From contig JAFNKG010000005.1 of assembly GCA_017883965.1 (NCBI GenBank), positions 194-64,193 on the forward strand: 64,000 nt of DNA. The letters are read 5' to 3'. The DNA is from Candidatus Methanophagales archaeon. GTDB taxonomy: Archaea; Halobacteriota; Syntropharchaeia; Alkanophagales; Methanospirareceae. Below the pieces are notes generated by a model. The model worked only from the letters and a program-made list of their open reading frames with translations. It was not told the DNA's origin and did no database searches. Below are positions 18,517 to 43,704 of the stretch, piece by piece (the first letter of the stretch is position 1; each line of letters begins with the position of its first letter). The translations under genes were made by a program, and so were the position numbers.

Positions 18517-18518
18517 AA

Positions 18519-22433: not shown

Positions 22434-22448
22434 GAGGAGGCAGGTAAA

Positions 22449-25795: not shown

Positions 25796-25837
25796 GTACA
25801 TCAACAAATAACGAAATGTTTATAAATCGTTCGCTTA

Positions 25838-26126: not shown

Positions 26127-26236
26127 AAACCTTGAGCGTGTTTGATACCCGCCTTTTCCCCGAAGCACATTCCGTAATTGCTCAATATATTGTAAACCTT
26201 CAAATGAGAAAATTATGTCCCAATATTTAATTTAAC

Positions 26237-26944: not shown

Positions 26945-26953
26945 ACCTTTTTA

Positions 26954-27397
26954 CTATTTCGTAACATTTACTGTCTGGCTAAATATTTGCTGATCGCTCT
27001 TTAAATCTATAATTACCAATTTCCCGACTTTCCCCTCTGTTATGTTTATATCCTTTTCTAATTTAGCTACTTCACCAGGTTCAAACTTCGCAATTACACT
27101 TGATTCAGGCCCATTTAATACTAAAGCACCACCTTCTTCAGTGAGATCCGGAGCAGATATATCAGGTGTCCATATACATTTCGTGTTTGCAAACCATATG
27201 ATATCTCCGCCTTGATGTGTTATTATTAGGTTCTTTGCACTTGCAGATGTTTGTGTGATATGTAAAAGTGGTTGTGGTAGTTTTGGTGGAGCAAACGTTA
27301 TAACAGCTGCAACCGCAATTATCACCCCAATCAGGAAAATAGCGCTACCGATTACTGACCAGTCCACACGAGGGTTTTTTTTAAATGTTTTTTTCAT
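26954..27397 (-). CDS. Membrane-anchored/secreted hypothetical protein
   Basis: 147 aa. The N-terminus has a basic stretch followed by a hydrophobic helix (KKNPRVDWSVIGSAIFLIGVIIAVAAVI), then a beta-rich domain. Confidence 0.45.
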   Translation of the reverse strand: MKKTFKKNPRVDWSVIGSAIFLIGVIIAVAAVITFAPPKLPQPLLHITQTSASAKNLIITHQGGDIIWFANTKCIWTPDISAPDLTEEGGALVLNGPESSVIAKFEPGEVAKLEKDINITEGKVGKLVIIDLKSDQQIFSQTVNVTK

Positions 27398-27839
27398 TTT
27401 TTTCTTTTTATTAGATGTTTTTCTTCATGTTATTTAAATATTTTGATTTTTTGCTGTGTCACATAAATAATAAAATAGGTATCTATCCCATATTCCGCAC
27501 TTTAAAATTTTAAGGATATTGTTTTCTGAAATTTTTATTTCCCTTTTTGTCTTAATTTCACCGCTTTGGAATGATTATCGAATAAGAATTTCGGAAAAGG
27601 ATCTAAAACATCTGAGGAATGTGGTAGAGAAAGTGATAGATAAGCACAAAGAACATTGGTAAAAGTTACCAATAAATATAAGATCATGGAATAGATACAT
27701 AGGAGGGGACGTTTTTTAAAAATCTGCCATGTTTAGCTTTTAAAAGCAAGTTTAAAAATTACGTAATGCATTCAACAATCCCCCTTAACCGAACACATAT
27801 GAAATTCATCCGAATGTACAAATCCTAAGCCAAAAAGCG

Positions 27840-28462
27840 TGGTCCTCCTTTTGGGCACAAAGGGACTTCACGCAAAAAGCCCGAAAGGGTGGATAAAGCA
27901 GTCATCATCCGGTTTGAAGCTTGCCCTCACTGCGGAGGTGAGCTAAAAGAATTGGAGGATGTGGGGATAGATATGTGGAAGAAATAGTCCCTATTCCAAT
28001 CCTCGTTATCAGGTATATCATTAAAGGGGGCTACTGCAAGAAATGTGGCAAGGTTGTTTATCCTGAGGTTCCTGAGACAATCGGAAAACGCTAAAAACCA
28101 GCCAGGACCGGGAGAGGGTATATGCCGAGTTTGTGAAAAGGCTGGAGGAGTTCGTAACGAAGGAGGGGAAATGGAAGCACTACAAAGTGAAAATGCTGGC
28201 GAAGCGTGCTTTTAAGTACAGGAATGAACTCTTCACTTTTATCCTCGTGCCCGGTGTAGAGCCCACGAATAACGTTGCTGAGCGAGCACTCCGACCAAGG
28301 GTGAGGCAAAGGAAGATATGGGGTGCTTTAGAACTGAAAAAGGTGCCAAAAACAGTGATATCGTAATGAGCGTTCTGGAGACAATGAAAAAGCTGGAAAA
28401 AGATCTGCTCATTCATGGTAAGGAATATGTCCTCCGCAAACTTTCTCAAAAAGGTGAATAGA
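27840..28462 (+). mobile_element. Degraded IS66-family transposase (TnpC) remnant, a pseudogene with internal deletion and frame breaks
   Basis: Three fragments in different frames are visible. ACPHCGGELKELEDVG and GYCKKCGKVVYPEV are the zf-IS66 CxxC pairs. The C-terminal fragment contains EPTNNVAERALRPRVRQRKIW, the IS66 DNNxAER...GRKNW motif. Confidence 0.6.
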
Positions 28463-28480
28463 TACTAAATCATAAAGCTT

Positions 28481-28770
28481 TTATATAAAAGGGGGAAAAA
28501 GGATGGGAAGTAAATTCATCAGTGCGCTGAAATGTTTTATTAAATGTCCAGTGGACTCAGCGAGACTCATGCTGACTTCGGGTTACGAATCGAGACCTGT
28601 GGAATCAATAAAGGCGCGTTGTCCCGAAGTAGAAGTGGAGAGTTTTGGTTTTTACGTAGGTCTTTTCATGGGTATTATCTTCGTTGTTCTCTGCGTGATG
28701 GCGTATCTATTTTTTACGCGCTTAAAGTCGTTATCCTGTACCGGGAAATGCTTTTCCCTCCATGAATTCA
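28481..28770 (+). repeat. Right copy of the approximately 290 bp direct repeat
   Basis: Near-identical to 25838..26126 with indels that cause a frameshift. Confidence 0.6.
28503..28765 (+). pseudogene. Frameshifted second copy of the small CPEV tail-anchored protein
   Basis: MGSKFISALKCFIKCPV... is nearly identical at DNA level to 25860..26126. The C-terminus continues in another frame (ORF 28544..28765 ends ...YREMLFPP, as the intact copy does). Confidence 0.5.
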
Positions 28771-28816
28771 AAAAATCGAAATGCTTTTTATTTGTGTATC
28801 TTTTATATTAAAAAAT

Positions 28817-30208
28817 ATGGATAGTGGAATACTGCCTGAATTGAGGGAGGCGCTATCAGCGGGGGCGGGGTATTCGCTGCTGATAAAGGGGGAGCCGGGA
28901 ACAGGGAAGACAATGCTTGCATTTGAGATGCTCGACGAGTTCGGGGGCGACAATGCTGTTTATCTTTCAGCGAGGATTTCACCCCCCTCTCTTTACAAAC
29001 AATTTCCATGGCTGAAAAAACGTATCGGTTTTAGCGTGATAGATGCAACTAAGTTGTATCTCTCATCAAAAGCATTTCCAAGGGCGCGCACTTTCTCTGA
29101 CATTCTTTACCTGAAAATGGTACAGGAAAAAAAACCCGCTACGCTCGTAATTGATAGCTGGGAGGCGATAGCATCGGAAGTAAAAAAGGAAGAGATAGAA
29201 ATGCTGGAAGCTGCGATAACTGACCTGATAAGGAATTATGCAACGCAATACGAAATGAATTTGATACTCATATCAGAAAGAAGTGGGACAACCCCGCTCG
29301 ATTATATTGTTGATGGAATAGTAGAGCTAAGCCGCATAACCATTGACTACCGGAGGGCGAGGGAAATGGTGCTAAAGAAATTAAGAGGCGTCAGAATAGA
29401 CCAGCACAAATATGGTTTTACCTTAGATGGTGGCAGATTTCGTTTCTTCGCTCCTTTCGAGCGGAGGAAAATAGAGAAGCCGAGAAGGGTAGAGGTTGTG
29501 CCAAATACTCCCACACATATATCTACGGGGTGTGTGGAGATAAATAGGATTTTGGGTGGTGGATTAAGTAAGGGAAGCACCCATATTATAGACTATGGAG
29601 ATGATTTATCTCTATTAGGATACCAATCCATCGTTTCTCACATGATTATAAACAGTATACAGCAAGGGAATTATTGTGTGAAGATTCCGAGTAGTGGATG
29701 GGATGAGAGGAGATTAAGGAGGGGGATATTGCCCTTCGTGAAGGAAGAGGATTATATGAAGTATTTCACAATCTTTGAGATAAGAAGGGAGAAGAAAGAA
29801 GTAAGAGAGAACGTGAAGGTTTTGAAAGGCGAATCAATGGAGGAAGATTTTCCATTGTTCACTGATTTCATTTCCAATTTAGAACCTCCGGTCATGGTTA
29901 TTATCGGAACGGATTTGTTAGAGTATCAATATCGTTTGAAAACAGTGACCAACCTTGCGAGAATGTTGGAGTTATTCTCATATTGGATAATGGAGTTGAG
30001 AGAGGCAGGAAATGTAGGAGTATTTGGAATGCCCACCGGAGGCGCATTGGGCGAAGAGCTGGGTCACATGGTAACGAATCGCTGGAAGATGACTGTGCTT
30101 GATAAGGGTGTTATCCTCTATTGCAATCGCCCTGATACCAAATTACATTGCGTGGAGAATATTATCACCGAAGAAACTCTTAAGTTAAAGCTCACTCCTT
30201 TTGTGTGA
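28817..30208 (+). CDS. KaiC/RecA-superfamily two-domain ATPase; domain 1 has an intact P-loop and domain 2 a degenerate one
   Basis: Contains GYSLLIKGEPGTGKTMLAFEML (Walker A). The second domain has the GGGLSKGSTHIIDYGDDLS loop in place of a P-loop. The start was set at MDSGILPELREAL by alignment with the paralog at 41014. Confidence 0.65.
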   Translation: MDSGILPELREALSAGAGYSLLIKGEPGTGKTMLAFEMLDEFGGDNAVYLSARISPPSLYKQFPWLKKRIGFSVIDATKLYLSSKAFPRARTFSDILYLKMVQEKKPATLVIDSWEAIASEVKKEEIEMLEAAITDLIRNYATQYEMNLILISERSGTTPLDYIVDGIVELSRITIDYRRAREMVLKKLRGVRIDQHKYGFTLDGGRFRFFAPFERRKIEKPRRVEVVPNTPTHISTGCVEINRILGGGLSKGSTHIIDYGDDLSLLGYQSIVSHMIINSIQQGNYCVKIPSSGWDERRLRRGILPFVKEEDYMKYFTIFEIRREKKEVRENVKVLKGESMEEDFPLFTDFISNLEPPVMVIIGTDLLEYQYRLKTVTNLARMLELFSYWIMELREAGNVGVFGMPTGGALGEELGHMVTNRWKMTVLDKGVILYCNRPDTKLHCVENIITEETLKLKLTPFV

Positions 30209-30226
30209 AGATAATTATAATATTCT

Positions 30227-30574
30227 TCACTTTTTACGAAAAATCTCCACGCCCTCTTCTAAAGCTTTTCTTATGAAGAAATTACCTTCGCTCTTCATCT
30301 TTTCTACCTCCTTCTCTGTATAAGGAAATACATCCACCCCTACCGGGAACCGAGAAGGTAAAAAGCGAGGTATCCTTTTCAAGAATGCCTCTCTCGACTC
30401 TCTCAATATCACAAGCAGGTCTATATCACTCCGAACAAAGGAGCCGAAGAGGAGCACACGCTCTACTTCAGGGTGTTTTCCCCCTATCTCTTTCAGATAT
30501 CTCCTGAGCGATTCTTCCACCAACTTCTTATCGAAATATCTTATCCTCACAGAATCTGACAATTTCCTCTGCAT
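30227..30574 (-). CDS. Minimal nucleotidyltransferase (MNT)
   Basis: Contains VLLFGSFVRSDIDLLVIL. Confidence 0.7.
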   Translation of the reverse strand: MQRKLSDSVRIRYFDKKLVEESLRRYLKEIGGKHPEVERVLLFGSFVRSDIDLLVILRESREAFLKRIPRFLPSRFPVGVDVFPYTEKEVEKMKSEGNFFIRKALEEGVEIFRKK

Positions 30575-30734
30575 ATCCTATTACCCTTTCTGCTCCTTCT
30601 CTTGTGTAAAAATCTAAAGGTGCACCAGAAGGATAGGAATTGGGATAATCTTCATCCTCAAGAGCATGCCGAGCATGCTCCAAATCCCTTTTTGCCTGCC
30701 TTAGCCAATCTTCATCTCTTCTCGCCATTTTCAC
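30528..30734 (-). CDS. Short HEPN-like protein (68 aa, possibly truncated) overlapping the MNT
   Basis: DWLRQAKRDLEHARHALE and YTREGAERVIGYAEEIV resemble the N- and C-terminal HEPN helices of 12816..13214. The central part is missing. Confidence 0.4.
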   Translation of the reverse strand: MKMARRDEDWLRQAKRDLEHARHALEDEDYPNSYPSGAPLDFYTREGAERVIGYAEEIVRFCEDKIFR

Positions 30735-30836
30735 CTCTTAATACTTGCATCTAAGATTTTATAAAGCTTCCTGAAAAATTTGGTGCTTTGAACTTGTAAT
30801 TTTTAAAGGCAGCGGGACAAAACTTTTTACGGTTAC

Positions 30837-31823
30837 TTACTGGCTTGCCCTCGATACTTCAGCGGATAACAACCTGTATTCCTCATACGCCCTTTTTAGA
30901 AACTTCGATAGCACTATTGATGCACAATAAAATATCACTAACGCAAAAAATCTTGCATCTCTGAAAAGGAAATCCATTGGCACAAAAGCTTCTTCCGCTA
31001 AGCCCGCTAAGCTATACCATCTCATTCCATAGTAAACAAGAACATAAATGTTTATAGTGGTTAGACCAATGGCAGTTCCATGATAGACCTTAACCAGTTC
31101 TAACCAGTCTTTCTGTTTCCTGGGCATAGAATATATATAAGCGAAAAAGAGCCAGCCCATGATGAAAAGAGCAATACCTGAGCACATACTTTCCACTATG
31201 GTTATATTGAAGTCAATGCTTATGACTGTTCGCCATAAAAACGCTAAACCTACTATCACTAATAATGTTCGTTCATCAGTTATCACCGTGCCTATTAGTT
31301 CTTTCATGCCCATTTCTCTCAGCTTTTTAACCCTTGGGTATAAATATGGTGATATGAGATGCAGAAGACCCTTCTCTTTGGATAGCGATATATAATCCTC
31401 GTGCATCTTTTTTACATACTTCACTGACCATAGAACCGCACAATAAAACACCACTAATGCGATATATCTTATATCTCTGAAAAGGAAATCCATTGGCGGA
31501 TAAGCTTCTACTTGCAGTAACTCGAACCATCTCATTCCATAGTAAATAACAACGTAAATATTTATAGAGACCATGCTAACGGCAATCCCTTGACAAATCA
31601 AATTCGACATTACCCAGCCCTCCAGTTTCTTGGACTTGTGATACATGTAAGCAAAGAGAACCCAGCCAAATATGAAAATAGCAATGCCTGAACACATACT
31701 TTCCCAAGGGGCTATCTTTCCATCAAGACTAATGACCGTTCGCCATAAAATCGCTACAAATATTATCGCTATTAATGTTCGCCCATCCATTATCACTTTG
31801 CCTACGGAATCTTTTATGCCCAT
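30837..31823 (-). CDS. Polytopic membrane protein built from two tandem homologous halves
   Basis: Residues 1-165 and 166-328 align: MGIKDSVGKVIMDGRTLIAIIFVAILWRTVISLD... versus MGMKELIGTVITDERTLLVIVGLAFLWRTVISID... Confidence 0.55.
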   Translation of the reverse strand: MGIKDSVGKVIMDGRTLIAIIFVAILWRTVISLDGKIAPWESMCSGIAIFIFGWVLFAYMYHKSKKLEGWVMSNLICQGIAVSMVSINIYVVIYYGMRWFELLQVEAYPPMDFLFRDIRYIALVVFYCAVLWSVKYVKKMHEDYISLSKEKGLLHLISPYLYPRVKKLREMGMKELIGTVITDERTLLVIVGLAFLWRTVISIDFNITIVESMCSGIALFIMGWLFFAYIYSMPRKQKDWLELVKVYHGTAIGLTTINIYVLVYYGMRWYSLAGLAEEAFVPMDFLFRDARFFALVIFYCASIVLSKFLKRAYEEYRLLSAEVSRASQ

Positions 31824-31967
31824 CTTTATCTGAAAACTCCTATCCTTCTGGCTATTATTTTAATAGGTAAGTGTGTATAAATATATTTCGGTTTTTAGGC
31901 ACCATGATTTAACCTTTCCTCTTTTTATCAACCCAAAATCATCTACCATATATGGCATAAGGCACTT

Positions 31968-31993
31968 GTGACATAAGTGACACAAAGTGACAC
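31968..31993 (+). promoter_or_regulatory. Three direct GTGACA(C) repeats at about 10 bp spacing upstream of frhB-hdrA
   Basis: The sequence is gtgacataagtgacacaaagtgacac. Confidence 0.35.
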
Positions 31994-32228
31994 GAAAAAA
32001 ACATTAAGTTTTATATAGTATGAATTCTAAATTATTAAATGTGGTGAAGTGATGGCAACAACTCTTGCTCCTCACGGGAATAGGGGTTGCATCAGCGGAA
32101 GGGAAAGCGGAAGCGAGAGCAGAGCAGCGGGTGGATGAATTACAGACAGTGCATGGATAGCATCAAAATAAAAATGAATAAAGGAATGGCAGAAGCAGAA
32201 TTGAAGAGCGGGATTCTCACTATGGACG

Positions 32229-33263
32229 GTGTTAAAAGTGTTAAAAGGGAGGGTCAAGAGATTTGAGGGGTTAAAGGAGGAGATAATTGACAGAAATCTA
32301 TGTTCATACTGTGGAGCTTGCGTTTCCTTCTGTGAACATCTCGAACTTGGACCTAACGCACCAATGTTAAAAGAAGAGTGCCCGCTCGATAAGGAGGGAG
32401 TGCTGAAGTGTAGCGAGAATGGGACTTGCTATGATATATGTCCGATGACGGAAACGGATATAGAAGGTTTAGAGGAGACGTTTTTGGATCCCGAAGGCAT
32501 GAGAGATGAGCATTTTGGCATCTACAAGAAGTCAATCGCCGGAAAAACATCAATAGAAGGGCAGGATGGAGGGGTAGTTACTTCTATGCTGGTCGCAGGC
32601 GTGGAAAAAGAGCTATTTGATTGCGTTATCGTGGCAGAAAGGGTGGAAGGCTACAATGCGGTTCCAAAGATAGCAGAGGATGTAGATACGATAAAAAAAG
32701 CAAAGGGGACAAAATATGTGCAATGCCCCATGGTATCGAAGATAGGGGAAGCGGTGAAAAGAGGGAAAAGAAGAATTGCGATTGTCGGGACAGCATGCGA
32801 GATAAGAGCAGTTCGGAAAATACAGTCTGTTTTGCTAAAAGAAGTCCCACAGATAGGGATTACCACCGTTGGACTTTTTTGTTTCGAAAGTTTTTACTGC
32901 GATAAGTTCGTAAACGAGACGAAGGAGTTATTAGGAATTGACCTTTCGTCTGCCTCTAAAATTCAGATAGCAAAGGGTGAATGTGAGGTTACGGTGAAGG
33001 GGAGGCATTATAAAACAAAAATAACCAATCTGGAAGAGATAGTGAGGGACAGCTGTCGCTATTGTGATGATTTTACTGCGAGGCTTGCGGATATTTCTGT
33101 CGGGTCGGTAGGTAGTGCAGAGGGGTATTGCACCGTAATCGTCAGGTCTGAGAGGGGGGAGCAGCTTTTGGATTTGATTGAATTCGCCAGAGGCGAGGTC
33201 AATAAAGAGGAAATCAGTAAGATAGTGCGGTACAAAAAGGTGAAGATTGAGGATAGAATATGA
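32229..33263 (+). CDS. F420-hydrogenase/dehydrogenase beta-subunit family protein (FrhB/FdhB/FpoF-like) with N-terminal Fe-S motifs
   Basis: CSYCGACVSFC is a 4Fe-4S motif. IEGQDGGVVTSMLVAG matches FrhB_FdhB_N, and IAIVGTACEIRAVRK matches FrhB_FdhB_C. The stop codon overlaps the hdrA start. Confidence 0.75.
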   Translation: MLKVLKGRVKRFEGLKEEIIDRNLCSYCGACVSFCEHLELGPNAPMLKEECPLDKEGVLKCSENGTCYDICPMTETDIEGLEETFLDPEGMRDEHFGIYKKSIAGKTSIEGQDGGVVTSMLVAGVEKELFDCVIVAERVEGYNAVPKIAEDVDTIKKAKGTKYVQCPMVSKIGEAVKRGKRRIAIVGTACEIRAVRKIQSVLLKEVPQIGITTVGLFCFESFYCDKFVNETKELLGIDLSSASKIQIAKGECEVTVKGRHYKTKITNLEEIVRDSCRYCDDFTARLADISVGSVGSAEGYCTVIVRSERGEQLLDLIEFARGEVNKEEISKIVRYKKVKIEDRI

Positions 33264-35233
33264 AAATAGGCGTTTATATATGTCACTGTGGGACGAACAT
33301 AGCAGCAACGGTGGATGTGAACGAGGTAACGAAGTTTGCAAAGAATCTATCAGGCGTTGCTATATCGAGAGATTACGTTTATATGTGCTCAGATCCAGGT
33401 CAGGAGCTGATAAAAAAGGACATTTTAAATGCGAAGCTGGACAGAGTTGTTGTTGCTTCCTGCTCTCCGAGGATGCACGAAGTTACTTTCAGAGGGGCGT
33501 GTGAGGAAGTGGGATTGAACGGCTATTGCATGGAAATGGCAAATATAAGGGAACAGTGCAGTTGGGTTCATTCTGACAAAGAAAAGGCGACAGAGAAAGC
33601 AAAGGAACTGGTGGCGAGTGCAGTTGCAAAAGCATCTTTATTACAGCCTTTGGAGCCAATGCGAGTAGGTGTAACGCCTTCTGCACTGATAATAGGAGGA
33701 GGAATAGCAGGAATTCAATGTGCATTAGATATTGCAGATGCAGGTTTTCAGGTGTATTTAGTAGAAAGGGAGCCCTCAGTAGGCGGGCACATGGCACAGC
33801 TTGATAAGACTTTTCCAACTTTGGATTGTTCTGCTTGCATTCTCACACCGAAGATGGCGGATGTGGCTCGCCATAAGAACATCGAGCTGGTTACTTATGC
33901 GGATGTGGAGAACGTAGAGGGCTACATAGGGAATCTCAAGGTGGTGGTGAGGAAGAAAGTGAGGTATGTGGATGAAGAAAAATGCACGGGATGCGGTTAT
34001 TGTGCGAAAGTGTGTCCCGTGACCATCTCTAATGAGTTTGATATGGGATTAGGAACGAGAAAAGCAGCTTATATCCCTTTTCCACAGGCTGTTCCTTTAG
34101 CTTACACGCTTGAGCGTGCAAAATGTATGGGTTGTGCTCTGTGCGAAGTAGTATGTGAGGTGGGAGCGATAAATTTTGAAGATGATGATGAGGAAATCGA
34201 GTTAGAAGTAGGAGCGATAGTAGTGGCGACGGGTTATGATTTATTTGACCCTTCTTTAGAGCCGAATTACGGCTATGAGTATGATAGGGTAATAACGGGC
34301 TTGGAGTTTGAGCGGCTTTGTAACGCTTCGGGTCCGACAAAGGGGGGTATAGAAATAAATGGTAAAGAGCCGAAAGATGTGGTTTTCATAAGCTGCGTGG
34401 GCTCGAGGGAGAAAGATGTGGAGGGAGGGAAAGGGAATGAATGTTGCTCTCGTGTATGTTGCATGTATATAGCGAAACAAGCGCATTTGGTGAAGGAGCA
34501 GATACCGGATGCGAATGTAACTGTTTTTTATACGGATGTTCAAGCATTCGGTAAAGGATTTGAAGAATTCTACTGGCGAGTGAAAGAAGAGGGAGTTAAT
34601 TACATAAGAAGGGAGTTAAAAGACGAGATAAAAGTAGAGAAGAAAGAGAATGGGAGGTTGAAAGTAAAAACAGTAAGAGAAGGTCGCCCGATAGAGAAGG
34701 AAGCAGACCTCGTAGTGCTCGCAACCGGCATTGTTCCTCGAAGGGATGTCTCTGACCTTGTAAGGAAATTGAAGATAACACAAAGTGGCGATAAATTCTT
34801 CCTTGAGGCACATCCAAAACTCCGCCCGATGGATACGCTTACTGATGGTATTTTCATCACTGGCTGTTGTCAATCGCCAAAAGACATTCCGGATAGCGTT
34901 GCACAGGCATCGGCTGCGGCATCGAGGGTTTGTAGCATATTATCTCAGGACTATATAGAAGTAGAGCCGATAATCGCAGAAGTAAAAGAAGAACTTTGCA
35001 TCGGCTGTGGTTCTTGTAAGGAAGTTTGTCCCTTCGGAGCGATAGAGTTAAAAGAAGAAGAAAGGCAGTTTGAGGAAATCGTGTTAAGAACGAGGAAATC
35101 GTATGTGACCCCAGCGCTCTGCAAAGGTTGTGGCGCTTGCATTCCCGAATGCCCCGTCAGTGCGATGACACAAAAGCACTTCACATCTGCACAGATAGAG
35201 GCGATGCTGAGGGGAGTTGGTGTTACAGCGTGA
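33260..35233 (+). CDS. hdrA: Heterodisulfide reductase subunit A (HdrA), FAD/Fe-S protein
   Basis: 657 aa. The FAD-binding site GGGIAGIQCALDIADAGFQVYLVEREPSVGGHMAQLD is present, with several ferredoxin CxxCxxCxxxCP motifs (CTGCGYCAKVCP, CIGCGSCKEVCP, CKGCGACIPECP). Confidence 0.85.
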   Translation: MKIGVYICHCGTNIAATVDVNEVTKFAKNLSGVAISRDYVYMCSDPGQELIKKDILNAKLDRVVVASCSPRMHEVTFRGACEEVGLNGYCMEMANIREQCSWVHSDKEKATEKAKELVASAVAKASLLQPLEPMRVGVTPSALIIGGGIAGIQCALDIADAGFQVYLVEREPSVGGHMAQLDKTFPTLDCSACILTPKMADVARHKNIELVTYADVENVEGYIGNLKVVVRKKVRYVDEEKCTGCGYCAKVCPVTISNEFDMGLGTRKAAYIPFPQAVPLAYTLERAKCMGCALCEVVCEVGAINFEDDDEEIELEVGAIVVATGYDLFDPSLEPNYGYEYDRVITGLEFERLCNASGPTKGGIEINGKEPKDVVFISCVGSREKDVEGGKGNECCSRVCCMYIAKQAHLVKEQIPDANVTVFYTDVQAFGKGFEEFYWRVKEEGVNYIRRELKDEIKVEKKENGRLKVKTVREGRPIEKEADLVVLATGIVPRRDVSDLVRKLKITQSGDKFFLEAHPKLRPMDTLTDGIFITGCCQSPKDIPDSVAQASAAASRVCSILSQDYIEVEPIIAEVKEELCIGCGSCKEVCPFGAIELKEEERQFEEIVLRTRKSYVTPALCKGCGACIPECPVSAMTQKHFTSAQIEAMLRGVGVTA

Positions 35234-35486
35234 AAGAGGAGAAGGAAGCCCTGATTTATGTTGTCATATACACTCAACTACTCGTTTTTTGTAAACGTTT
35301 TTTATCCTTGCTAAAATTGATTCCAATCCCAAGGAAGCTGGTTGAATACGTGGAAAGCGAGGGCAAACATTACGGAATGAAAAGGTCTTTAATTGTGCGA
35401 CACAGCACAGCATGTTTTTACATCTTCGACATTTCAAGCTGAAGTTTAACGCCGAAAAGCAAGATATCTTTCTTGCAGTTTTCAGC

Positions 35487-35502
35487 GTGTCACCAGTGAC
35501 AC
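35487..35502 (+). promoter_or_regulatory. Palindrome GTGTCAC-ca-GTGACAC upstream of antiporter set B
   Basis: The sequence is gtgtcaccagtgacac, a perfect inverted heptamer, about 55 nt upstream of 35555. Confidence 0.35.
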
Positions 35503-35554
35503 ATAGAGGGAAAAAGAATAACTTTATATATTTTGTTTCCTATAAACAGTTCTG

Positions 35555-37063
35555 ATGTTGAGTGTAGTTGAACATTTTCCTGTGCTTATCGTTGTAATAT
35601 CGCTGTTTTCTGCATTCACCATCTTGATTGTCGGCTCTGTGAAGAAGAAATCGTGCTGTTTCATTTCCATTGGAACCATTCTCGTTCAATTCGTCATGGC
35701 TGTTTTTATCCTGCGTCATGTCCTGACTGAAGGAACCATTCATTACTGGCTCGGGGGATGGAGCCCGCCATGGGGCATAGAATATGTCGTAGATGCCTTG
35801 AATGCATACGTATTGGTCATACTTCTGGTTTTAGCTTTGATATGTGCGATATATTCAAAGAGGAGCATAGAGCACGAATTGCCGCATAAAATTGTCCCTT
35901 TTTATACCATTTATCAACTCCTTATCACTGGTCTGTGCGGTATAACCGTGACCGGCGATATTTTTAATATGTATGTGTTTGTCGAGATAACGTCCTTATC
36001 TGCGTATGCGTTAGTAGCATCGAGGGGTAAAATAGCGTTAAAGGCGAGTTTTACTTACCTCGTATTGGGCTCCATCGGTGCTTGCTTCTTCTTGTTGGGG
36101 GTAGGTTTCCTGTATTCAGTAACGGGTTCGCTGAACATGCACGACCTCTCGCTCTTATTACCACCTTTATACGGGAATAGAGTAGTTCAGGCGGCTTTTG
36201 TTTTTTTCATAGTTGGACTAAGCATAAAAATGGCGCTATTCCCGCTTCATACGTGGTTACCAGATGCACATGCCTTTGCACCTTCGGAGATAAGCGCAAT
36301 GCTTTCCGGTATAATCATCGAGGTTTGCACCTATGCATATATAAGGGTTGCGTTCTCTGTATTCACGCTGGAGTTCATCACGCTTTACGTGCCTATATCC
36401 GGTATACTTTGCTGGATATCTGCAATAGCCATGATCTTTGGTTCTATTCTTGCGATAGCGCAGTTTAATTTAAAGAGGATGCTTGCTTATTCGAGTGTAG
36501 CGCATATGGGCTATATTATGCTCGGTGTGGGGCTTTCCACTTCCAACCCTTTAGGACTAACTCCTCCTTTGATGCACATACTGAACCACGCATTGATGAA
36601 AGGATGCTTGTTCCTGGTTGCCGGTGCTTTTATTTACAAGGCGGATTTGTGGAATATAACGGATTTCCGGGGTTTGGGAAGAAAAATGCCTTATACATGC
36701 ATGGCCTTCATTTTAGCTGCTCTCTCAATGTTAGGAATGCCACCAAGCGTGGGATTCGTCACGAAATGGTATCTAATAATTGCCGCTTTGGAGGCAAAAC
36801 AATTTATATTTGTGGCGGTGATATTCTTTAGCACGCTTCTTATGGTATTTTATTTTTGGCGTGTGATAGAATATATGTATATAAGGGTGGGAGACGAGGA
36901 AGGAAAAGAAAAGGAAATAGAGGAGATACCGAGGAGTATGCTCATCCCGGTGTTAGTACTCGCATTTCTCTGTTTCATCATGGGAATTATCTGGCTCACT
37001 GAGATACCTTTACCCATATTGGACGCAGTTAATTCAATGTATGGATTGGGGGTGGTGCCATAA
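35555..37063 (+). CDS. NuoN/MrpD-family antiporter-like subunit (set B, D1')
   Basis: 502 aa. The N-terminal 70 aa are nearly identical to those of 19107..20639. Contains LAYSSVAHMG. Confidence 0.8.
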   Translation: MLSVVEHFPVLIVVISLFSAFTILIVGSVKKKSCCFISIGTILVQFVMAVFILRHVLTEGTIHYWLGGWSPPWGIEYVVDALNAYVLVILLVLALICAIYSKRSIEHELPHKIVPFYTIYQLLITGLCGITVTGDIFNMYVFVEITSLSAYALVASRGKIALKASFTYLVLGSIGACFFLLGVGFLYSVTGSLNMHDLSLLLPPLYGNRVVQAAFVFFIVGLSIKMALFPLHTWLPDAHAFAPSEISAMLSGIIIEVCTYAYIRVAFSVFTLEFITLYVPISGILCWISAIAMIFGSILAIAQFNLKRMLAYSSVAHMGYIMLGVGLSTSNPLGLTPPLMHILNHALMKGCLFLVAGAFIYKADLWNITDFRGLGRKMPYTCMAFILAALSMLGMPPSVGFVTKWYLIIAALEAKQFIFVAVIFFSTLLMVFYFWRVIEYMYIRVGDEEGKEKEIEEIPRSMLIPVLVLAFLCFIMGIIWLTEIPLPILDAVNSMYGLGVVP

Positions 37064-39153
37064 TGATAGCAGAAGTTGCCTGGTTATGCTTCCTTTTTCC
37101 TTTTGCCGGCGCGCTTTTATCTCCTGTTCTAGCCAGAATTCATCCTAAGCTCAGAGATTATGGGGCGGTGTTTTTCTCTTTCCTCGCAGCTCTATCCAGC
37201 GTGATGTTCATACCCTATTTATTTCATCCCTCGAAGTTGCCAATCGAGAGTGCTTTTGTATGGCTCACCACACCCATAGAATTGAGAGTTGGTGTTTTGA
37301 TTGATCCTTTGAGTATAGTGATGGCAAATGTAGTTGCAGTTATAAGCTTTATAATAATGGTTTATTCCCTGGGGTATATGAAGGGAGACCCTTCCTTAAC
37401 AAGGTGGTGGATGTGGATGAACCTTTTCATTGGAAGTATGCTCCTTCTGGTTCTTTCCAATAACTTGCTATTTCTCTTCGTCGGATGGAAAATGGTAGGC
37501 TTGTGCAGCTATGGATTAATAGGTTTTTACTATAGGGACGAGAAGAAATACTGGATAGGTGGTCCTTCCCCCACTAAATACTGCACACCTTCCCACGCAG
37601 GCTTAAAAGCTTTAGTTGTAACGTCCGCTGGGGATGTTCTCATGTTAGGTGGGATTCTTATAATGTATTCCTATTCGGGAACCTTAAACATCCTGGAACT
37701 TTATGAGACTTCATCAATATGGATACCGGAAATGGCAAAGTCATCGGGAATGATCTTACTGGCGAGTATTCTCCTTCTTGCAGGACCCATCGGTAAGTCA
37801 GCACAGTTTCCACTTCACGAGTGGCTTCCGGAAGCTATGGCAGGTCCTGGTCCAGTTTCAGCACTGATCCATGCAGCAACAATGGTTAAAAGCGGGGTTT
37901 ATCTGGTTGCCAGATTCATACCAATTTTCTTCTACGGCTATTGGGTAGCTGGATGCAGCGAAGCTTCTTATTTCTTCATTTTAACCGCTTGGGTAGGTGC
38001 AATCACAGCCTTTTTGGCTGCTACTCAAGGTATGGTCTCCTTGGAACTGAAAAAAGCGCTTGCATTTTCTACCGTTAGTCAGATAGGCTACATGATGCTT
38101 GCATTAGGAGTATCCGGATTAACTGCGCCCAGTCTAATGGGAGGCTTTACATCAGGAATGTTTCACCTGGTAAATCATGCTCTGTTTAAGGCTTGTCTCT
38201 TCCTTTGCGCTGGTTCGGTCATTCACACCGCTCACTCTATCTATATGAACGATATGGGCTCCATCAGAAAGTACATGCCGTTTACCTGGATTTTCATGTT
38301 TATTGCGGCTCTATCTCTGATGGGTGTTCCGCCACTGCCTGGATTTTGGAGTAAAGACGCCATTCTTGTATCATGTCTGGAAGCCCATAATTACCCATTA
38401 TTCTTACTCGCCTTAATTACCGTAGTCGTAACTTCATTCTATACGCTACGCTTTATAGGAATGGTCTTTCATGGAAGTGAGAGTAAAAACGTAGAAAAAT
38501 TAAAGCAAAAAGGTACGCATCTCGGTGAAGCCCACCGTACAATGGTGGGTGCATGCGGTGTTTTAGCTATCACGATTATTGTACTTGGCATATTTGGTCT
38601 CCCCTTAGAGCATTTATTAGGAGAAGGATTCGGATATACTATGGAAAAACTTCATCTGCCAGTTGAACATGCTACCGAGCATTCGATGCCTCATTTATTA
38701 GTTCCTCTTCTATCAGTAATTTCAGTGGTTATAGGTATTGTGCCGGCATATTTACTTTACATATCGAGAAAAATAGATCCAGAGGGCATGTTGGAGAAGT
38801 ATCTAACCCTGAAGGTGCTTCATAAGTTCTTCTGGAATAGGTGGTACATAGATCGTTTCTATTACATGTTTTTTGTAGGTGGAATGACCAAGCTTTTTAC
38901 TTCTGTACCCAAGTATATTGAAAATCCACTGGATAAATTGTTTCATAAGATAATCCCCTCTATTCCCGGAAGACTCTATGACGGGGGGCGGCTCATTCTG
39001 GCAAGTAAGTATGGGCGAGAGGAGGTAGAAGGGGCACCAGAAGAAGAACCAGTGGTAGGAATAAGCATAGGGCTCGCATTGCTGCTGGTGCTTTTCTGCA
39101 TCGCTTTATATTTGATAGCTATGTTTATACGTGGGTGGCTTATAAGTCCCTAA
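37063..39153 (+). CDS. NuoL/MrpA-family antiporter-like subunit with a long C-terminal extension
   Basis: 696 aa. Contains WLPEAMAGPGPVSALIHAATMVKSGVYLVARF and HLVNHALFKACLF (NuoL-like). The C-terminal tail ...NPLDKLFHKIIP... ends in a TM segment. It overlaps the upstream gene by 1 nt. Confidence 0.8.
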   Translation: MIAEVAWLCFLFPFAGALLSPVLARIHPKLRDYGAVFFSFLAALSSVMFIPYLFHPSKLPIESAFVWLTTPIELRVGVLIDPLSIVMANVVAVISFIIMVYSLGYMKGDPSLTRWWMWMNLFIGSMLLLVLSNNLLFLFVGWKMVGLCSYGLIGFYYRDEKKYWIGGPSPTKYCTPSHAGLKALVVTSAGDVLMLGGILIMYSYSGTLNILELYETSSIWIPEMAKSSGMILLASILLLAGPIGKSAQFPLHEWLPEAMAGPGPVSALIHAATMVKSGVYLVARFIPIFFYGYWVAGCSEASYFFILTAWVGAITAFLAATQGMVSLELKKALAFSTVSQIGYMMLALGVSGLTAPSLMGGFTSGMFHLVNHALFKACLFLCAGSVIHTAHSIYMNDMGSIRKYMPFTWIFMFIAALSLMGVPPLPGFWSKDAILVSCLEAHNYPLFLLALITVVVTSFYTLRFIGMVFHGSESKNVEKLKQKGTHLGEAHRTMVGACGVLAITIIVLGIFGLPLEHLLGEGFGYTMEKLHLPVEHATEHSMPHLLVPLLSVISVVIGIVPAYLLYISRKIDPEGMLEKYLTLKVLHKFFWNRWYIDRFYYMFFVGGMTKLFTSVPKYIENPLDKLFHKIIPSIPGRLYDGGRLILASKYGREEVEGAPEEEPVVGISIGLALLLVLFCIALYLIAMFIRGWLISP

Positions 39154-39241
39154 ACTTCTTTATATTATTCTTCAGCAAATGGTCACGAAAGAAATGATTA
39201 GGAACGTGGTGGATGCAACAAGAGATGGGGTGGTGATGTAA

Positions 39242-40753
39242 ATGATACCTTATATCCTTTTTCAAATAACAGCAGTACCAATTATAGCCTCCGTATTCAT
39301 ATTTTTAACCAGACCAAGATTAGGTGAGAAAGCAGGCTGGATAGTGGGTATTACCCTCTTATACACTACTGCGCTTCTTTGTATGGTTGGCATCAGAGTT
39401 TATCAGGGCACAATAATTTATGAGGAATATCCATTAGCCCCGGCGGTGAATTTTAATCTTTTAGCCGACGGTTTGAGTATACCTGTTGCATTGATAATGA
39501 ATCTGTGCTGTGTAGTCCTGGCATTTTACTCAATACACTATGTAGGACACAGAATAGAGGTAATATATGGAGAAGTGGATAAAGAGACATGGCTTATGTA
39601 TTACACGAGGTTTTTCTTTTTATTTCCCTTCTTTTCCACGGGTTTCATGGGTATTGCCTTTTCTACAAACCTTATAGCGATGTATTTCTTCATGGAACTA
39701 TTGACTATTATTCCCCTTTATTTCATAATGGCTCAATTTGGTTATTCCGATTTTATAGAGCGTTATAAAGTTGCCCTAATGTGTCTTTTCTGGGGAATTG
39801 CTGGGGCGACCCTCTTCCTGATTGGTATCCTTTTAGCATATACCCAGATAGATAGCTTTGAAATCTCGGAGTTGCGCACTCTTTCGGGAAATCCAGTAAT
39901 TACCTGGATTATCTTATGCATGCTTCTTGGTTTATTTTCTAAGCTGGCAATATTTCCACTTCATGTTTGGATGCCCTGGGTTCACGCAGAGCATCCCACA
40001 TGCATAGCTGGATTGCTTGCGGTTTATGCGAATATAGCAGCTTATGTGATGGTTAGGGTTCTCATCTTGCCACTTTATAATGATTTCAAAGTTTTTGGCA
40101 TACCTATTATGGTGTTGGCTCTGGTAACCATGGTATATGGCTCTCTTCTTGCTATGGCTCAAAATGACGTGAAACGATTCGCTGCTTGCTCAACTATAAG
40201 CCAGATATCATATTCTGTCCTTGGACTGAGCGCACTCACAATCTGGAGTATTGAAGGGGGGCTCTTTTTCTTTTTGAGTCACATCATGGGTAAAGCAATT
40301 CTCTTCTCAACCGCTGGTATATTAGTCTATGTGACAGGGATCAGGGATATGAGAGAGATGGGTGGACTCGCATCCAGGATGCCAATAACTGCTACGCTCT
40401 GGATAATGGGCGCTATGATGCTCTCAGGCCTTCCGCCTTTTAGCACCTTCGCAGCAGAATGGATAATGTTCACAGGCATCTTCATGTTTGGAGCACATGG
40501 TCCTTCTATTGCACTGATAGTTGCAATTCTGGGTGTTTCTGCAGTTGGATTAACGATTGCTTACACATTCTGGTCCGCGAAGAGAATATTTTTTGGTCCA
40601 TTGAAACCTAATCTGTCAAATGATGAAATCAGGGACCCACCATTAACGATGTGTGTTCCACTTCTACTTTTAGCTGTTGTATCAATCATCCTTGGCCTGT
40701 ATCCTAAACCCATAATGGATCTTTTTCATTTTGTGATAGGAGGAGTAATATGA
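39242..40753 (+). CDS. NuoN/MrpD-family antiporter-like subunit (set B, N1')
   Basis: 503 aa and a paralog of 24296..25795. VWMPWVHAEHPTCIAGLLA is identical between the two. Confidence 0.8.
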   Translation: MIPYILFQITAVPIIASVFIFLTRPRLGEKAGWIVGITLLYTTALLCMVGIRVYQGTIIYEEYPLAPAVNFNLLADGLSIPVALIMNLCCVVLAFYSIHYVGHRIEVIYGEVDKETWLMYYTRFFFLFPFFSTGFMGIAFSTNLIAMYFFMELLTIIPLYFIMAQFGYSDFIERYKVALMCLFWGIAGATLFLIGILLAYTQIDSFEISELRTLSGNPVITWIILCMLLGLFSKLAIFPLHVWMPWVHAEHPTCIAGLLAVYANIAAYVMVRVLILPLYNDFKVFGIPIMVLALVTMVYGSLLAMAQNDVKRFAACSTISQISYSVLGLSALTIWSIEGGLFFFLSHIMGKAILFSTAGILVYVTGIRDMREMGGLASRMPITATLWIMGAMMLSGLPPFSTFAAEWIMFTGIFMFGAHGPSIALIVAILGVSAVGLTIAYTFWSAKRIFFGPLKPNLSNDEIRDPPLTMCVPLLLLAVVSIILGLYPKPIMDLFHFVIGGVI

Positions 40754-41013
40754 GTGCTTGAAAAACTAAGACTTGACCGACAATTACGCTTGACACAGAC
40801 TGGTTCTACCGGATAACAGGATGTATTAAAACGCTTTTTCTCCAATCAAATTCATCGCTTTGTTATCCATTTAATTGCCCGCTGTTCTCGTCACTCGAAA
40901 CTTCCCCTTCTTCCATTGACAACGACCTTTCTTTGAAAAGAAAGCGTGACCAAAGAAATATGTTTTTAATAACAAAAAACCTTTTTATATATATAAAAAC
41001 AAACTTTTTGATT

Positions 41014-42402
41014 ATGATGGAAGCGAAAATGCCCCCGGAGTTAGCTGAGGCATTCTCCTCACCGAGAGGCTATTCACTGCTGATAAAGGGAGCGCCGGGG
41101 ACAGGGAAGACGATACTCGCACTTGAGCTAATCGGCGAGTTAGGCGAAGTTAATGCCGTTTACCTTTCAGCCCGGGTCTCCACTCACGCCCTTTACGACC
41201 AGCTCCCCTGGCTGGACGAATGTGTCAGCCCGTTGAACCTGATAGATGCCACAAAGTTCTACGTATCTTCGGATATAGTTCCAGGAGTGCAATCTTTCCC
41301 TGATATTCTTTACACAAGGTTAGGGAAAATAAAAAAACCCGCTACCGTTGTAATTGATAGCTGGGAAGCGATAACATCTCAGATGGAGAGGGAAAAGACA
41401 GAAGCGCTGGAAGCGGCGATTACCGAATTAGCAAGACATGCCGAAATGAAATTGATACTCGTGTCAGAGAATCTTGGTATATCATCGCTTGATTACATGG
41501 TGGATGGGATAGTAACGCTAAAGCGTTTAACGCTGAATTACAGAAGGGCGAGGGAATTAGAGATAGAGAAATTAAGGGGTATCCGAATAGACCAGCCAAA
41601 ATATGCATTCTCCTTAGAAGGAGGCAGATTTCATTATTTCAGACCTTTCGAGCGGAGGAAAATAGAGAAGCCGAGAAGAGTAGAGATTGTGCAAAATAGC
41701 GAAGCATACTTGTCTACCGGGGTCCGGGACTTAGATAAAATTCTGAGCGGGGGATTCAGAAAGGGAAGTTTTAATATTATAGAAGCCGGAGATGATATGT
41801 CTGTTTTGGGTTACCAATCCATTATCGCTCACATGATTATAAACAGCATACAGCAAGGGAATAACTGTGTATGTATTCCATGTTGCGGCTGGAATGAGCG
41901 GAGATTGAGAAGGGGGATATTGCCTTTTGTAAATGAAGAAGACTATAATAAGTTTTTCACTGTATTCGAGATAGGTTCAGAGGAGAAGGAAGATGAGGGA
42001 GAGAATGTGAGAATATTGAAAGGAGAGTCGATGAAGACGGACTTTCCCAAATTCCGGGATTTCATTTCTGATTTGGAGCCGCAAGTAATGGTAATTATCG
42101 GAGCGGATACGCTGGAGTATCCATATCAGTTGAAAGAGAAAGGTAAAGTAGGTGAAATGGTGGGGATGTTATCCCGGTTGATGATAGATGTGAGGGATGC
42201 AGATAATGTAGGTGTATTTGGAGTGACTCCGGGGCTTGTGCTGAGCAGTGAGCTGATTCACCTCTCGTCAGTGCACCTGAAGTTGACCGTGCTCGATAGA
42301 AGTGTTATCCTTTACTGCAATCGCCCTGATACCAAAGTACATTGTCTGGAGAATGTTGTTACTGATGATAGTCTTAGAATAGAACTCACTGCTATTGTAT
42401 AG
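41014..42402 (+). CDS. KaiC/RecA-superfamily two-domain ATPase, paralog of 28817..30208
   Basis: Contains GYSLLIKGAPGTGKTILALELI. It shares the stretch FERRKIEKPRRVE with the first copy, and the DNA there is identical over about 35 nt. A TATA-like ttttatatatataaaa lies just upstream. The start was trimmed to the internal ATG. Confidence 0.65.
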   Translation: MMEAKMPPELAEAFSSPRGYSLLIKGAPGTGKTILALELIGELGEVNAVYLSARVSTHALYDQLPWLDECVSPLNLIDATKFYVSSDIVPGVQSFPDILYTRLGKIKKPATVVIDSWEAITSQMEREKTEALEAAITELARHAEMKLILVSENLGISSLDYMVDGIVTLKRLTLNYRRARELEIEKLRGIRIDQPKYAFSLEGGRFHYFRPFERRKIEKPRRVEIVQNSEAYLSTGVRDLDKILSGGFRKGSFNIIEAGDDMSVLGYQSIIAHMIINSIQQGNNCVCIPCCGWNERRLRRGILPFVNEEDYNKFFTVFEIGSEEKEDEGENVRILKGESMKTDFPKFRDFISDLEPQVMVIIGADTLEYPYQLKEKGKVGEMVGMLSRLMIDVRDADNVGVFGVTPGLVLSSELIHLSSVHLKLTVLDRSVILYCNRPDTKVHCLENVVTDDSLRIELTAIV

Positions 42403-43007
42403 GGAGGAAGAAATATGGAGATAGACGTGCAGGTAATGGTAGGCAGCAACATAATTATCACCTTTGGCAGGGTAGACGTGGAGTTGACGAAAGAACAGGC
42501 GGAGAAACTAAAAGTACTTCTTGTAGATGCCCTTGAGAGAAGTGAGCGTAATCTTCTCCTCAGAGGGGTCGATAAAGGCAAGTAAAGTCCTTTCCGTGAA
42601 GAGGAAGAAGTCATCGCCACATTTCTCTCTTATCTCTTCTATACTCTTATTATCGAAATAAATCCGCTTTCCTCTTTCATCCCCTGCTCTTTGAACAGAA
42701 GCAATAAGCTCGATAATATTCTTCTCTTTCCTTTCATTTTTCTCTTCCCCTTCGGGCTCTTCATCAACCATTTTATTATTTTCATTTATTGCTTCTTTTT
42801 CGTTAATAAAAAGCTTTTCTTTTTGATTTGAAATCTTTGGTATGAAAATACTTTATATTTTCATGCTTATGGGTGTCCCGGCGGGTCATGAAAGTTTCCT
42901 TTTGTTTTATCTCACTGGATATTAAAGGACTGAGAACCTGCATTCTGCATCTTCATTGAAATTTACCGAAAACTTTATAAAGCACTGGTGCCATATAAGT
43001 AATTGGA

Positions 43008-43096: not shown

Positions 43097-43378
43097 GTGG
43101 TGGGAATGGGAATAAAAAAAATAGTTGGCACGTGGCGATGCTTTGGCAAGGACCCGGTGCTCGCAACAAGGATAATGATAGATGTGGCGGGTGCGAAGTT
43201 ACTGGGGACATTTAATCCTGTATATAAGAAATACGAGCAGGATTTGGAAGTGACAAAGAGAAGATGCCACGAAGAAGCGGTCCAAAACCTGGCGATTGGG
43301 ACAGTGGCATTGATGTCGCTTGTCTTCGGGACTCTCTACCTGTTTATTTACCTGACGTATAGGGTGCTGTGGATTTAA
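43097..43378 (+). CDS. Small tail-anchored protein (CF.K.PV..TRIM family), copy 1
   Basis: 93 aa. Contains WRCFGKDPVLATRIMIDVAGAKLLGTFNPVYKKYEQDLEV followed by one TM helix. The gene and its leader are tandemly duplicated. Confidence 0.5.
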   Translation: MVGMGIKKIVGTWRCFGKDPVLATRIMIDVAGAKLLGTFNPVYKKYEQDLEVTKRRCHEEAVQNLAIGTVALMSLVFGTLYLFIYLTYRVLWI

Positions 43379-43431: not shown

Positions 43432-43704
43432 ATGGAAATAAAAAAAATTGTCGGCACGTGGCGATGCTTTGGCAAGGACCCGGTGCTCGCAACAAGGATA
43501 ATGATAGATGTGGCAAGTGCGAAGTTACTGGGGACATTTAATCCTGTATATAAGAAATACGAGCAGGATTTGGAAGTGTGTAAGAGAAATTGCCCTGAGG
43601 TATCATGTCATAGTCTGGCTATCGGCACGGGGGTCCTGCTGGCAGTTCTTTTCGGCGTTTTTTGCGCAGTAGCGTATGCGATTCAGGTATTGGTCATTCC
43701 ATAA
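43432..43704 (+). CDS. Small tail-anchored protein (same family), copy 2, with a CPEV motif
   Basis: 90 aa. The N-terminal 45 aa are identical to those of copy 1, then NCPEVSCHSLAIG followed by a TM helix. Confidence 0.5.
   Translation: MEIKKIVGTWRCFGKDPVLATRIMIDVASAKLLGTFNPVYKKYEQDLEVCKRNCPEVSCHSLAIGTGVLLAVLFGVFCAVAYAIQVLVIP

Follow-up and report, generated by a model that had tools for sequence, protein, structure and literature searches.

The haloarchaeal protein GvpD oligomerises, and its Walker motif and arginine-rich regions are needed to cause the breakdown of the activator GvpE (PMC4390858). Two genes encoding relatives of this protein, copy A (28817–30208, + strand) and copy B (41014–42402, + strand), are described here from a 64,000-nucleotide (nt) stretch of a Candidatus Methanophagales genome (GCA_017883965.1, contig JAFNKG010000005.1), a member of the anaerobic methanotrophic archaea of group 1 (ANME-1). 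The whole stretch is called the window below, and coordinates are those of the window unless another locus (L numbers) is named. To our knowledge, GvpD is the sole relative of these proteins that has been studied, and the GvpD-like family has been examined only in the regulation of gas vesicles. Both genes of the window lie beside clusters encoding Mrp- and NuoLMN-like antiporter subunits, and energy conservation in ANME-1 archaea is still poorly understood.

The reading favoured here, to which a probability of roughly 0.5 is given, is a composite one: the two proteins would be ancient GvpD-like paralogs acting as GvpD-style ATP-dependent regulators, with the clade of copy A (clade A) tied to an antiporter island. 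Confidence in the family assignment is high; the regulatory role is proposed by analogy and with modest confidence.

Family placement and domain architecture

The best Pfam match of both copies was the GvpD_P-loop family (PF07088; 54.3 bits for A and 61.4 bits for B, with a cut-off of 24), and the KaiC family (PF06745) scored slightly behind it in each case. In a profile–profile comparison (hhalign), the alignment of the ANME-type proteins matched that of 20 GvpD-like proteins end to end over 454 columns (probability 100%, E = 8e-111), and all seven members of the partner set that were scanned passed both PF07088 and the second GvpD model, PF20440 (GvpD_bR2). A library-wide phmmer search gave 205 representatives at E < 1e-30, mostly of 450–550 amino acids (aa) and aligned over the full length at ~30–36% identity; eight of the ten such relatives scanned passed both GvpD models, and two matched PF20440 over its full length. 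Since PF07088 lies above its cut-off and full-length profile homology connects A and B with two-domain GvpD proteins, they are assigned with high confidence to a divergent subfamily in the GvpD-like branch of the KaiC/RecA superfamily.

Identification of the proteins as a true KaiC clock protein, as ArlH/FlaH or as a RadA/RadB recombination protein would agree with the shared fold and with weak matches to the KaiC, ArlH, RadA and RadB hidden Markov models (HMMs), but the scores are very far from those of genuine members. The NCBIfam KaiC model, for which the cut-off is 408, gave 48.4 and 51.9 bits, TIGR02655 gave 17.7 and 25 bits against 546, the ArlH/FlaH models 17.9–21.8 bits against 194–215, the RadB model 14 bits against 278 and RadA/Sms 16–18 bits against 403. 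With one P-loop dead, the catalytic glutamates absent and no kaiA, kaiB, arl or recombination genes among the window open reading frames (ORFs) scanned, such an identity is regarded as wholly improbable. The first-pass annotation had described the proteins as KaiC-like ATPases; the RecA/KaiC fold stands, while the best family is GvpD-like and the KaiC model falls far below its cut-off, and the ArlH or RadB identity named there as the outcome that would overturn its view was not obtained in the HMM comparison (14–18 bits against 215–278). Membership in an anti-phage defence system was considered separately and rejected, the PADLOC matches being only 13–24 bits and confined to the Walker A region.

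Copies A and B (463 and 462 aa; database proteins P0032 and P0001) are 59% identical and 77% similar in amino-acid sequence from end to end (BLASTP) and 70% identical in nucleotide sequence (codon alignment), in agreement with the initial description of two proteins of about 60% identity at these positions. Note that copy B as annotated publicly (P0001, 480 aa) begins 54 nt further upstream (40960–41013); the family alignment disagrees with this start, and the extension would cross the TATA-like box described below.

Each protein is soluble and consists of two RecA/KaiC-fold domains linked by a basic segment. The AlphaFold2 model of copy B contains two alpha/beta domains (predicted local distance difference test score, pLDDT, 82.3), the top PDB matches of this model in Foldseek were full-length KaiC chains (E about 1e-24), and no membrane-targeting feature was found in either ATPase. 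The Walker A motif of the N-terminal domain is GEPGTGKT in copy A (28889–28912, +) and GAPGTGKT in copy B (41089–41112, +), and its G-x-x-G-x-G-K-T pattern is invariant, both across the family and among distant GvpD-like proteins. The second domain of both copies retains the KaiC-type lead-in STG..LD..GGG..KGS, but the following GxxGxGKT is replaced: at the position aligned to the Walker A motif of the KaiC CII domain, copy A has D-Y-G-D-D-L-S (29591–29611, +) and copy B has E-A-G-D-D-M-S (41782–41802, +), and the C-terminal domain is without a P-loop in every family member. The two-domain organisation with an intact first and a degenerate second P-loop, proposed earlier from the letters of the sequence, is thus upheld by the structural model, the fold searches and the alignments.

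Conservation in the family alignment is complete or almost complete for the Walker B aspartate D115, for E152 and for the K186-x-R188 pair. This pair aligns with the K-x-R of KaiC, which we take to be a phosphate-contacting pair acting across subunits. In the HMMER alignment to PDB KaiC chains, the family sequence Y-L-S-T-R-V-S stands opposite F-V-T-F-E-E-S of KaiC, so an arginine, R54, sits at the catalytic-glutamate position; this residue is found there throughout the family (119 of 119 members) and in 128 of the 135 distant GvpD-like proteins. The correspondences in the table of KaiC columns were given independently by the HMMER alignment. Additionally, arginine-rich stretches are conserved at two places, the linker between the domains and the C-terminal domain, where the sequence is G-W-D-E-R-R-L-R-R-G; the basic runs RRKIEKPRR and ERRLRRG are candidate counterparts of the two basic regions of GvpD. 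It is likely that ATP is bound at the N-domain interfaces of a ring, the formation of which we infer, that its hydrolysis is slow or nil and that the inactive C-terminal domain serves for interactions. A proteasome-docking (HbYX-like) reading of the ...LTP[FI]V C-terminus was discarded, because the penultimate residue is F in clade A but I in clade B and distant relatives and is thus not always aromatic.

Clade A and the antiporter island

A word-indexed search returned 182 proteins at E <= 0.001, and the 120 listed are 52–100% identical to copy B. The organism labels among the matches listed are Methanophagales/ANME-1, Methanospirareceae, Methanomicrobia, Halobacteriota and Syntrophoarchaeum metagenome-assembled genomes, with a single exception labelled Bathyarchaeia. 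Judged from these matches listed, the subfamily is confined to ANME-1 (Methanophagales) and the sister lineages Alkanophaga and Syntrophoarchaeum. Average-linkage clustering on identity divided the representatives listed into three clades, A (92 proteins, with copy A), B (17, with copy B) and C (10), the Alkanophaga (48% identity to copy B) and Syntrophoarchaeum (43%) proteins remaining outside. Several contigs encode two or three members of the family.

The loci compared for gene context came from 12 exact-protein look-ups, to which profile scans added at least two from genome contigs (L004, L005) and at least one from metagenome contigs (L026). In eight of the eight clade A loci examined (the window, L018, L019/L020, L021, L022, L024, L025 and L049; six distinct protein lineages from different assemblies or samples), the ATPase gene comes directly after an Mrp-like cluster and a membrane ORF of 80–88 aa. 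The full order begins with Mrp-like small subunits and/or several Proton_antipo_M genes and the membrane ORF, and continues with one to three clade A ATPases, an opposite-strand membrane protein of 326–331 aa and a further Proton_antipo_M set. This slot is kept although the antiporter modules trade positions between genomes, and it is kept despite insertions, namely a segment with an insertion sequence (IS) and a HEAT-repeat gene in the window and a glycosyl hydrolase in L018. Moreover, clade A has been amplified in tandem between antiporter sets, with two copies in one metagenome contig (L019/L020, 10001–12876) and three in GCA_964400255.1 (L049, 5224–11392).

In the window, copy A lies ~3 kb past the last Proton_antipo_M gene (24296–25795) of set A (16300–25795, +), a full Mrp-type cluster with MnhG, MnhE, MbhE, MnhB, MnhC/NuoK-like and four Proton_antipo_M (D-like) genes. 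The gap holds two copies of an 88-aa membrane ORF (small88), genes for a HEAT-repeat and a pilin-like protein and the degraded remains of an IS66 element, so the placement of copy A behind set A and after an IS66 insertion, as first annotated, is correct. Copy B starts 260 nt past the last Proton_antipo_M gene (39242–40753) of set B and likewise follows it directly, as had been noted. Set B consists of three Proton_antipo_M genes, M-, L- and N-like (35555–40753, +), preceded by FrhB-like and HdrA-like genes (32229–35233, +). The assumption that sets A and B are two copies of one membrane module does not hold: their gene content differs, and they are different kinds of module.

The first small88 copy (25860–26126, +) closes the Mrp-like cluster and is homologous to the C-terminal tail of the long MrpD-like proteins; the second (28503–28811, +) lies directly upstream of copy A and is the copy syntenic with other genomes. 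The two belong to a duplication (25833–26127 and 28477–28766, 82.5% nucleotide identity) that includes small88 and its upstream promoter-like region. In the second copy one T has been lost from a T7 run, and the resulting tail frameshift is either a mark of a pseudogene or a homopolymer assembly error. Between the two copies stands the inserted segment (26237–28460), consisting of the HEAT-repeat gene (26237–26944, −), the pilin-like gene (26954–27397, −) and the IS66 transposase remnant (about 27800–28460). The remnant has broken reading frames, a DDE_Tnp_IS66 C-terminal fragment (33 bits, cut-off 23.1) and a zf-IS66 fragment slightly below its cut-off (26.4 bits). The segment was not found at the equivalent position in L018, L021, L024 and L049.

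Comparison of upstream sequences revealed a putative promoter of copy A, the motif AAAAAATCGAAATGCTTTTTATT (28770–28792, +), which resembles a transcription factor B recognition element (BRE) with a TATA box and stands 25–47 nt upstream of the start codon; it has a single match in the window and none in shuffles. The BRE/TATA-like motif AAAAAAYCGAAANGYTTTTTATT is kept at the same distance (25–47 nt) from clade A starts in five genomes. A TATA-like A/T box, again a putative promoter, lies 14–34 nt upstream of the copy B start (40980–41000, +). The presence of these elements before clade A and copy B suggests that copies A and B are transcribed from independent promoters.

The conserved adjacency, together with the constant presence ahead of clade A of small88 and its Cys-containing cytoplasmic head, might be taken to mean that the ATPase is a peripheral energising subunit, a ring docked on the antiporters that couples the binding or hydrolysis of ATP to the passage of ions or its gating. 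This is very improbable, as the catalytic glutamate is lost, the promoter-like motifs are separate and clade B is located elsewhere; besides, we know of no Mrp or complex I-type module in which such coupling occurs.

Several observations concern the island itself. It is unusually large and comprises Mrp-type small subunits and many MrpD/NuoL/M/N-like genes (16300–45810 in the window; also L018, L019, L021, L024, L047 and L049), and the place of whole modules varies from one genome to another: in L021 the M/L/N trio stands behind the Mrp small subunits, in the window it stands behind the FrhB/HdrA genes, and in L001/L018, L021, L024 and L047 it comes directly after the gene for the opposite-strand membrane protein. 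Only in the window do the FrhB-like and HdrA-like genes stand directly upstream of the trio on the same strand, a position unique among the loci examined, and this may reflect a lineage-specific joining of a soluble redox module to an ion-translocating one, or a mere rearrangement. The opposite-strand protein of the window (328 aa; 30837–31823, −) has two similar halves and belongs to no Pfam family. All the ANME-1 loci examined have it in the opposite orientation, with the clade A ATPase on one side and the next antiporter set on the other, and its paralogs (44–51% identity) occur deeper in the island in L001, L024, L044 and L047. The small membrane ORFs at 25860–26126, 43097–43378, 43432–43704 and 45520–45810 are homologous to the C-terminal extension of the 606–622-aa MrpD-like subunits, with which they have in common the pattern CF.K.P...R.M ... 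CPEV..ESLG and one transmembrane helix; by this homology, they look like free-standing versions of the subunit tail.

Age of the paralogs and the surroundings of clades B and C

Synonymous divergence (dS) between copies A and B is 1.0 in the window genome and 1.13 in a related genome, and the ratio of non-synonymous to synonymous divergence (dN/dS) is 0.17–0.30 for orthologs and paralogs alike. By these divergence estimates, the A/B duplication is ancient and purifying selection acts on both copies.

The longest identical run between the two genes is exactly 35 nt (29453–29487 in copy A and 41644–41678 in copy B, both +) and encodes the basic inter-domain linker PFERRKIEKPRR. The first-pass annotation had recorded a run of about this length and had seen in it a sign of gene conversion. 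Conversion that keeps the tract identical would account for an exact run of 35 nt in genes only 70% identical overall, for the low probability of a run of 35 nt or more under independent synonymous codon draws (P = 0.00035) and for the identity in the 60-nt window around the tract, which is 0.88 between A and B and 0.83 between B and its own ortholog. However, a four-sequence test, in which copies A and B were compared with their orthologs from GCA_025435355.1 (L018 and L001), spoke against it. The A–B nucleotide identity is the same within the window genome (0.704), within the other genome (0.700) and between the genomes (0.701 and 0.702), and dS is about 1 in both. Orthology was supported at 207 informative sites, the within-genome, conversion-type grouping at nine and the third grouping, which represents noise, at eight; just one of the nine conversion-type sites falls in the tract. 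The tract core ATAGAGAAGCCGAGAAG is common to all four sequences, and the peptide encoded by the tract is the consensus of the whole family, in which this is the most conserved basic linker.

The run is also not clearly in excess of chance. When codon pairs were permuted among the columns of each amino acid, so that the codon-matching rate of the genes themselves was preserved, a run of 35 nt or more had P = 0.067. Identical amino acids use the same codon in 65% of cases gene-wide, compared with 39% expected under independence, and the elevated matching is therefore a property of the whole gene and old. The tract is interpreted as ancestral, selectively maintained linker coding sequence; gene conversion is unsupported and unneeded and is rejected with high confidence, its probability being put at a few chances in a hundred. 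Where old paralogs share a short stretch without differences, it may be no more than the most conserved, codon-poor motif of their family.

Clade B has other conserved neighbours than clade A. The clade B gene follows the antiporter trio only in the window and in a close relative (L001, 84% identity). In L002, L044 and L045, the clade B ATPase and the small gene behind it (small56) adjoin an opposite-strand gene for a single-domain AAA protein of 294–303 aa (AAA and AAA_lid_3 domains), next to which stands a DUF5981–MetF–HdrA–FrhB–HdrA cluster, and this neighbourhood is kept in the three assemblies. Of clade C, the L047 member comes after an antiporter set and occupies the second slot.

These surroundings bear on the possibility that the proteins are assembly or quality-control factors, their rings serving as chaperones or platforms for antiporter complexes and the inactive C-terminal domain as a docking surface. 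The fixed position at the end of structural gene clusters would suit such a function, but the ATPases have no membrane-targeting feature and clade B usually adjoins the soluble MetF–HdrA–FrhB genes; in addition, RecA-like proteins are, as far as we know, without precedent as factors in the assembly of Mrp or complex I modules. The explanation is considered rather unlikely.

The small56 gene (42415–42585, +) encodes a 56-aa orphan protein, starts 12 nt past the stop codon of copy B and has GGGAGG upstream. It follows the clade B and C ATPases as well as both outgroup genes (Alkanophaga and Syntrophoarchaeum), and its product is 70–93% identical across 61 database proteins from ANME-1, Alkanophaga and Syntrophoarchaeum. 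The distribution of substitutions over codon positions (e.g., 8/1/14) is that of a coding gene. The AlphaFold2 model of small56 has three strands and one long helix, and no Pfam, PADLOC or PDB fold match was found for it. The gene is probably co-transcribed with the clade B and C ATPases. A further ORF of 87 aa (small87; 42508–42771, −) is convergent with small56 and overlaps its 3′ end by 78 nt. It occupies the same position elsewhere, with 77–90% amino-acid identity in L001, L044, L047, L021, L020 and L004; in L021 and L020 it comes after the antiporter trio, and the ATPase gene is absent there. No Pfam or PADLOC match was obtained for small87.

Apart from these genes, the window is rich in toxin–antitoxin and defence-type genes. 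Three nucleotidyltransferase/HEPN pairs are present (12437–13214, +; 30227–30734, −; 60035–60849, +), and the HEPN ORF of the second pair (30528–30734, 68 aa) matches only the first 25 of 117 positions of the HEPN profile. An AbiEi/AbiEii pair and an OLD-family AAA/TOPRIM nuclease beside a RadC-like gene were also recognised (regions 3035–4584 and 10428–12269).

Proposed role and comparison with known systems

If they behave like GvpD and KaiC, the proteins would assemble into hexameric rings with ATP bound at the subunit interfaces. The ATP-bound rings might then capture a partner through their arginine-rich surfaces and change its level or activity, and such control of the partner could tune the expression or assembly of the adjoining antiporter modules to the energy state of the cell. 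For clades B and C, small56 is the candidate partner; clade A would be devoted to the antiporter island.

A number of observations weigh against this proposal. The functional part of it depends on one characterised and distant relative, GvpD, and neither gvp genes nor a GvpE-like partner were found among the window ORFs scanned. A GvpA-like motif likewise gave no six-frame match, a result that serves as a lead only. The PF20440 scores of A and B themselves (12.3 and 24.4 bits) lie below the cut-off of 27.9, with only the first 55–60 of the 254 profile positions matched. The catalytic glutamate is missing, and ATP hydrolysis is therefore uncertain. Three of the five clade B loci (L002, L044 and L045) have no antiporter gene within 10 kb, and the clade C gene of L023 has unrelated surroundings and is preceded by a winged-helix gene. 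In L021 and L020, small56 follows the antiporter trio with no ATPase adjoining, so it is not strictly ATPase-dependent. Finally, the synteny was observed among fairly close relatives (70–88% identity) and could be inherited rather than selected. The survey of ATPases beside NuoN-like genes, suggested at the outset as a check, therefore has a divided result: the adjacency was found for clade A always (8/8 loci), while clade B lacks it at the three loci just named. Even so, the outcome that was feared at that time, in which such ATPases would never stand beside antiporters elsewhere, is contradicted by relatives that repeatedly adjoin NuoN/MrpD-like genes in other ANME-1 genomes.

The last of these objections leads to the most serious competing explanation, in which the location was inherited without any functional link, the proteins being general KaiC/GvpD-type signalling ATPases and their adjacency to antiporters in ANME-1 a historical accident. 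It agrees with the promoter-like motif that each ATPase gene has of its own, with no obvious operon coupling, and with the origin of every clade A locus from one archaeal order. The clade B and C genes located elsewhere (L002, L044, L045 and L023) fit it as well. So do the homologs of Alkanophaga and Syntrophoarchaeum (L004, L005) and three distant GvpD-like loci (L006, L017, L027), for which no antiporter homolog was found within 10 kb. At the same time, an accident of this kind does not readily explain why the clade A slot outlasts heavy rearrangement with different antiporter modules upstream, why it persists through the IS/HEAT insertion in the window and the glycosyl-hydrolase insertion in L018, or why two or three ATPases stand in tandem in L019/L020 and L049 and a clade C member occupies the second slot of L047. 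About one chance in four is allowed to this explanation: it is a serious possibility, and GvpD-style regulation with clade A tied to the island is preferred to it.

A bolder and doubtful extension of the regulatory reading can be formulated as follows. The GvpD-like rings would be sensors of ATP or energy state devoted to the modular ANME-1 antiporter island, each paralog, whether of clade A, B or C, would have its own Mrp/NuoLMN-like module to control or to dock onto, with docking possibly by way of small88, small56 and small87, and the archaeon would in this way reconfigure its ion-translocating machinery post-translationally. If true, this would give the GvpD mechanism a second biological role and add a new layer of control to the energy metabolism of methane-oxidising archaea.

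The kind of protein is known, since relatives have already been annotated publicly as "KaiC/GvpD/RAD55 family RecA-like ATPase" or "GvpD P-loop domain-containing protein"; the genomic association is previously unreported. Full-text literature searches found no description of the Mrp/NuoLMN-like island of ANME-1 and nothing combining GvpD or KaiC with ANME or ANME-1, and two major ANME comparative papers are without mention of antiporters or KaiC. No published account was found of the restriction to ANME-1 and its sister lineages, of the three clades or of their ties to Mrp-like clusters and the 56-aa gene. A GvpD-like ATP-binding protein with a putative promoter of its own at the module boundaries offers a testable handle on the control of antiporter modules, and it extends the GvpD-like family from gas vesicles to a different physiological setting.

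Among the known systems, the Elongator Elp4/5/6 ring is eukaryotic and has only the fold in common with A and B, a resemblance of kind. ArlH/FlaH, PH0284 and SSO2452 are single domains of about 230 aa, unlike the two-domain A and B, and ArlH sits in archaellum operons, whereas the window ORFs scanned include no arl genes. KaiC has tandem RecA-like domains, an alignable STG..LD..GGG..KGS lead-in and the K-x-R pair in common with A and B; it differs in that A and B have lost the second P-loop and carry R-V (R54-V55) in place of the catalytic glutamate pair. GvpD is the closest of all, although the nearest proteins passing both GvpD models are only ~30–35% identical to A and B, the C-terminal Pfam score of A and B is sub-threshold, and they are about 70 residues shorter than haloarchaeal GvpD (taking its length to be about 530 aa). 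The neighbours here are antiporter clusters or the 56-aa orphan gene, and the host belongs to a methanotroph lineage. The features in common with GvpD are the two domains with a P-loop in the N-terminal one only and the GvpD-like signature Y-x-S-[TS]-R, which stands where KaiC has T-F-E-E; arginine-rich segments, candidate counterparts of those of GvpD, are present as well.

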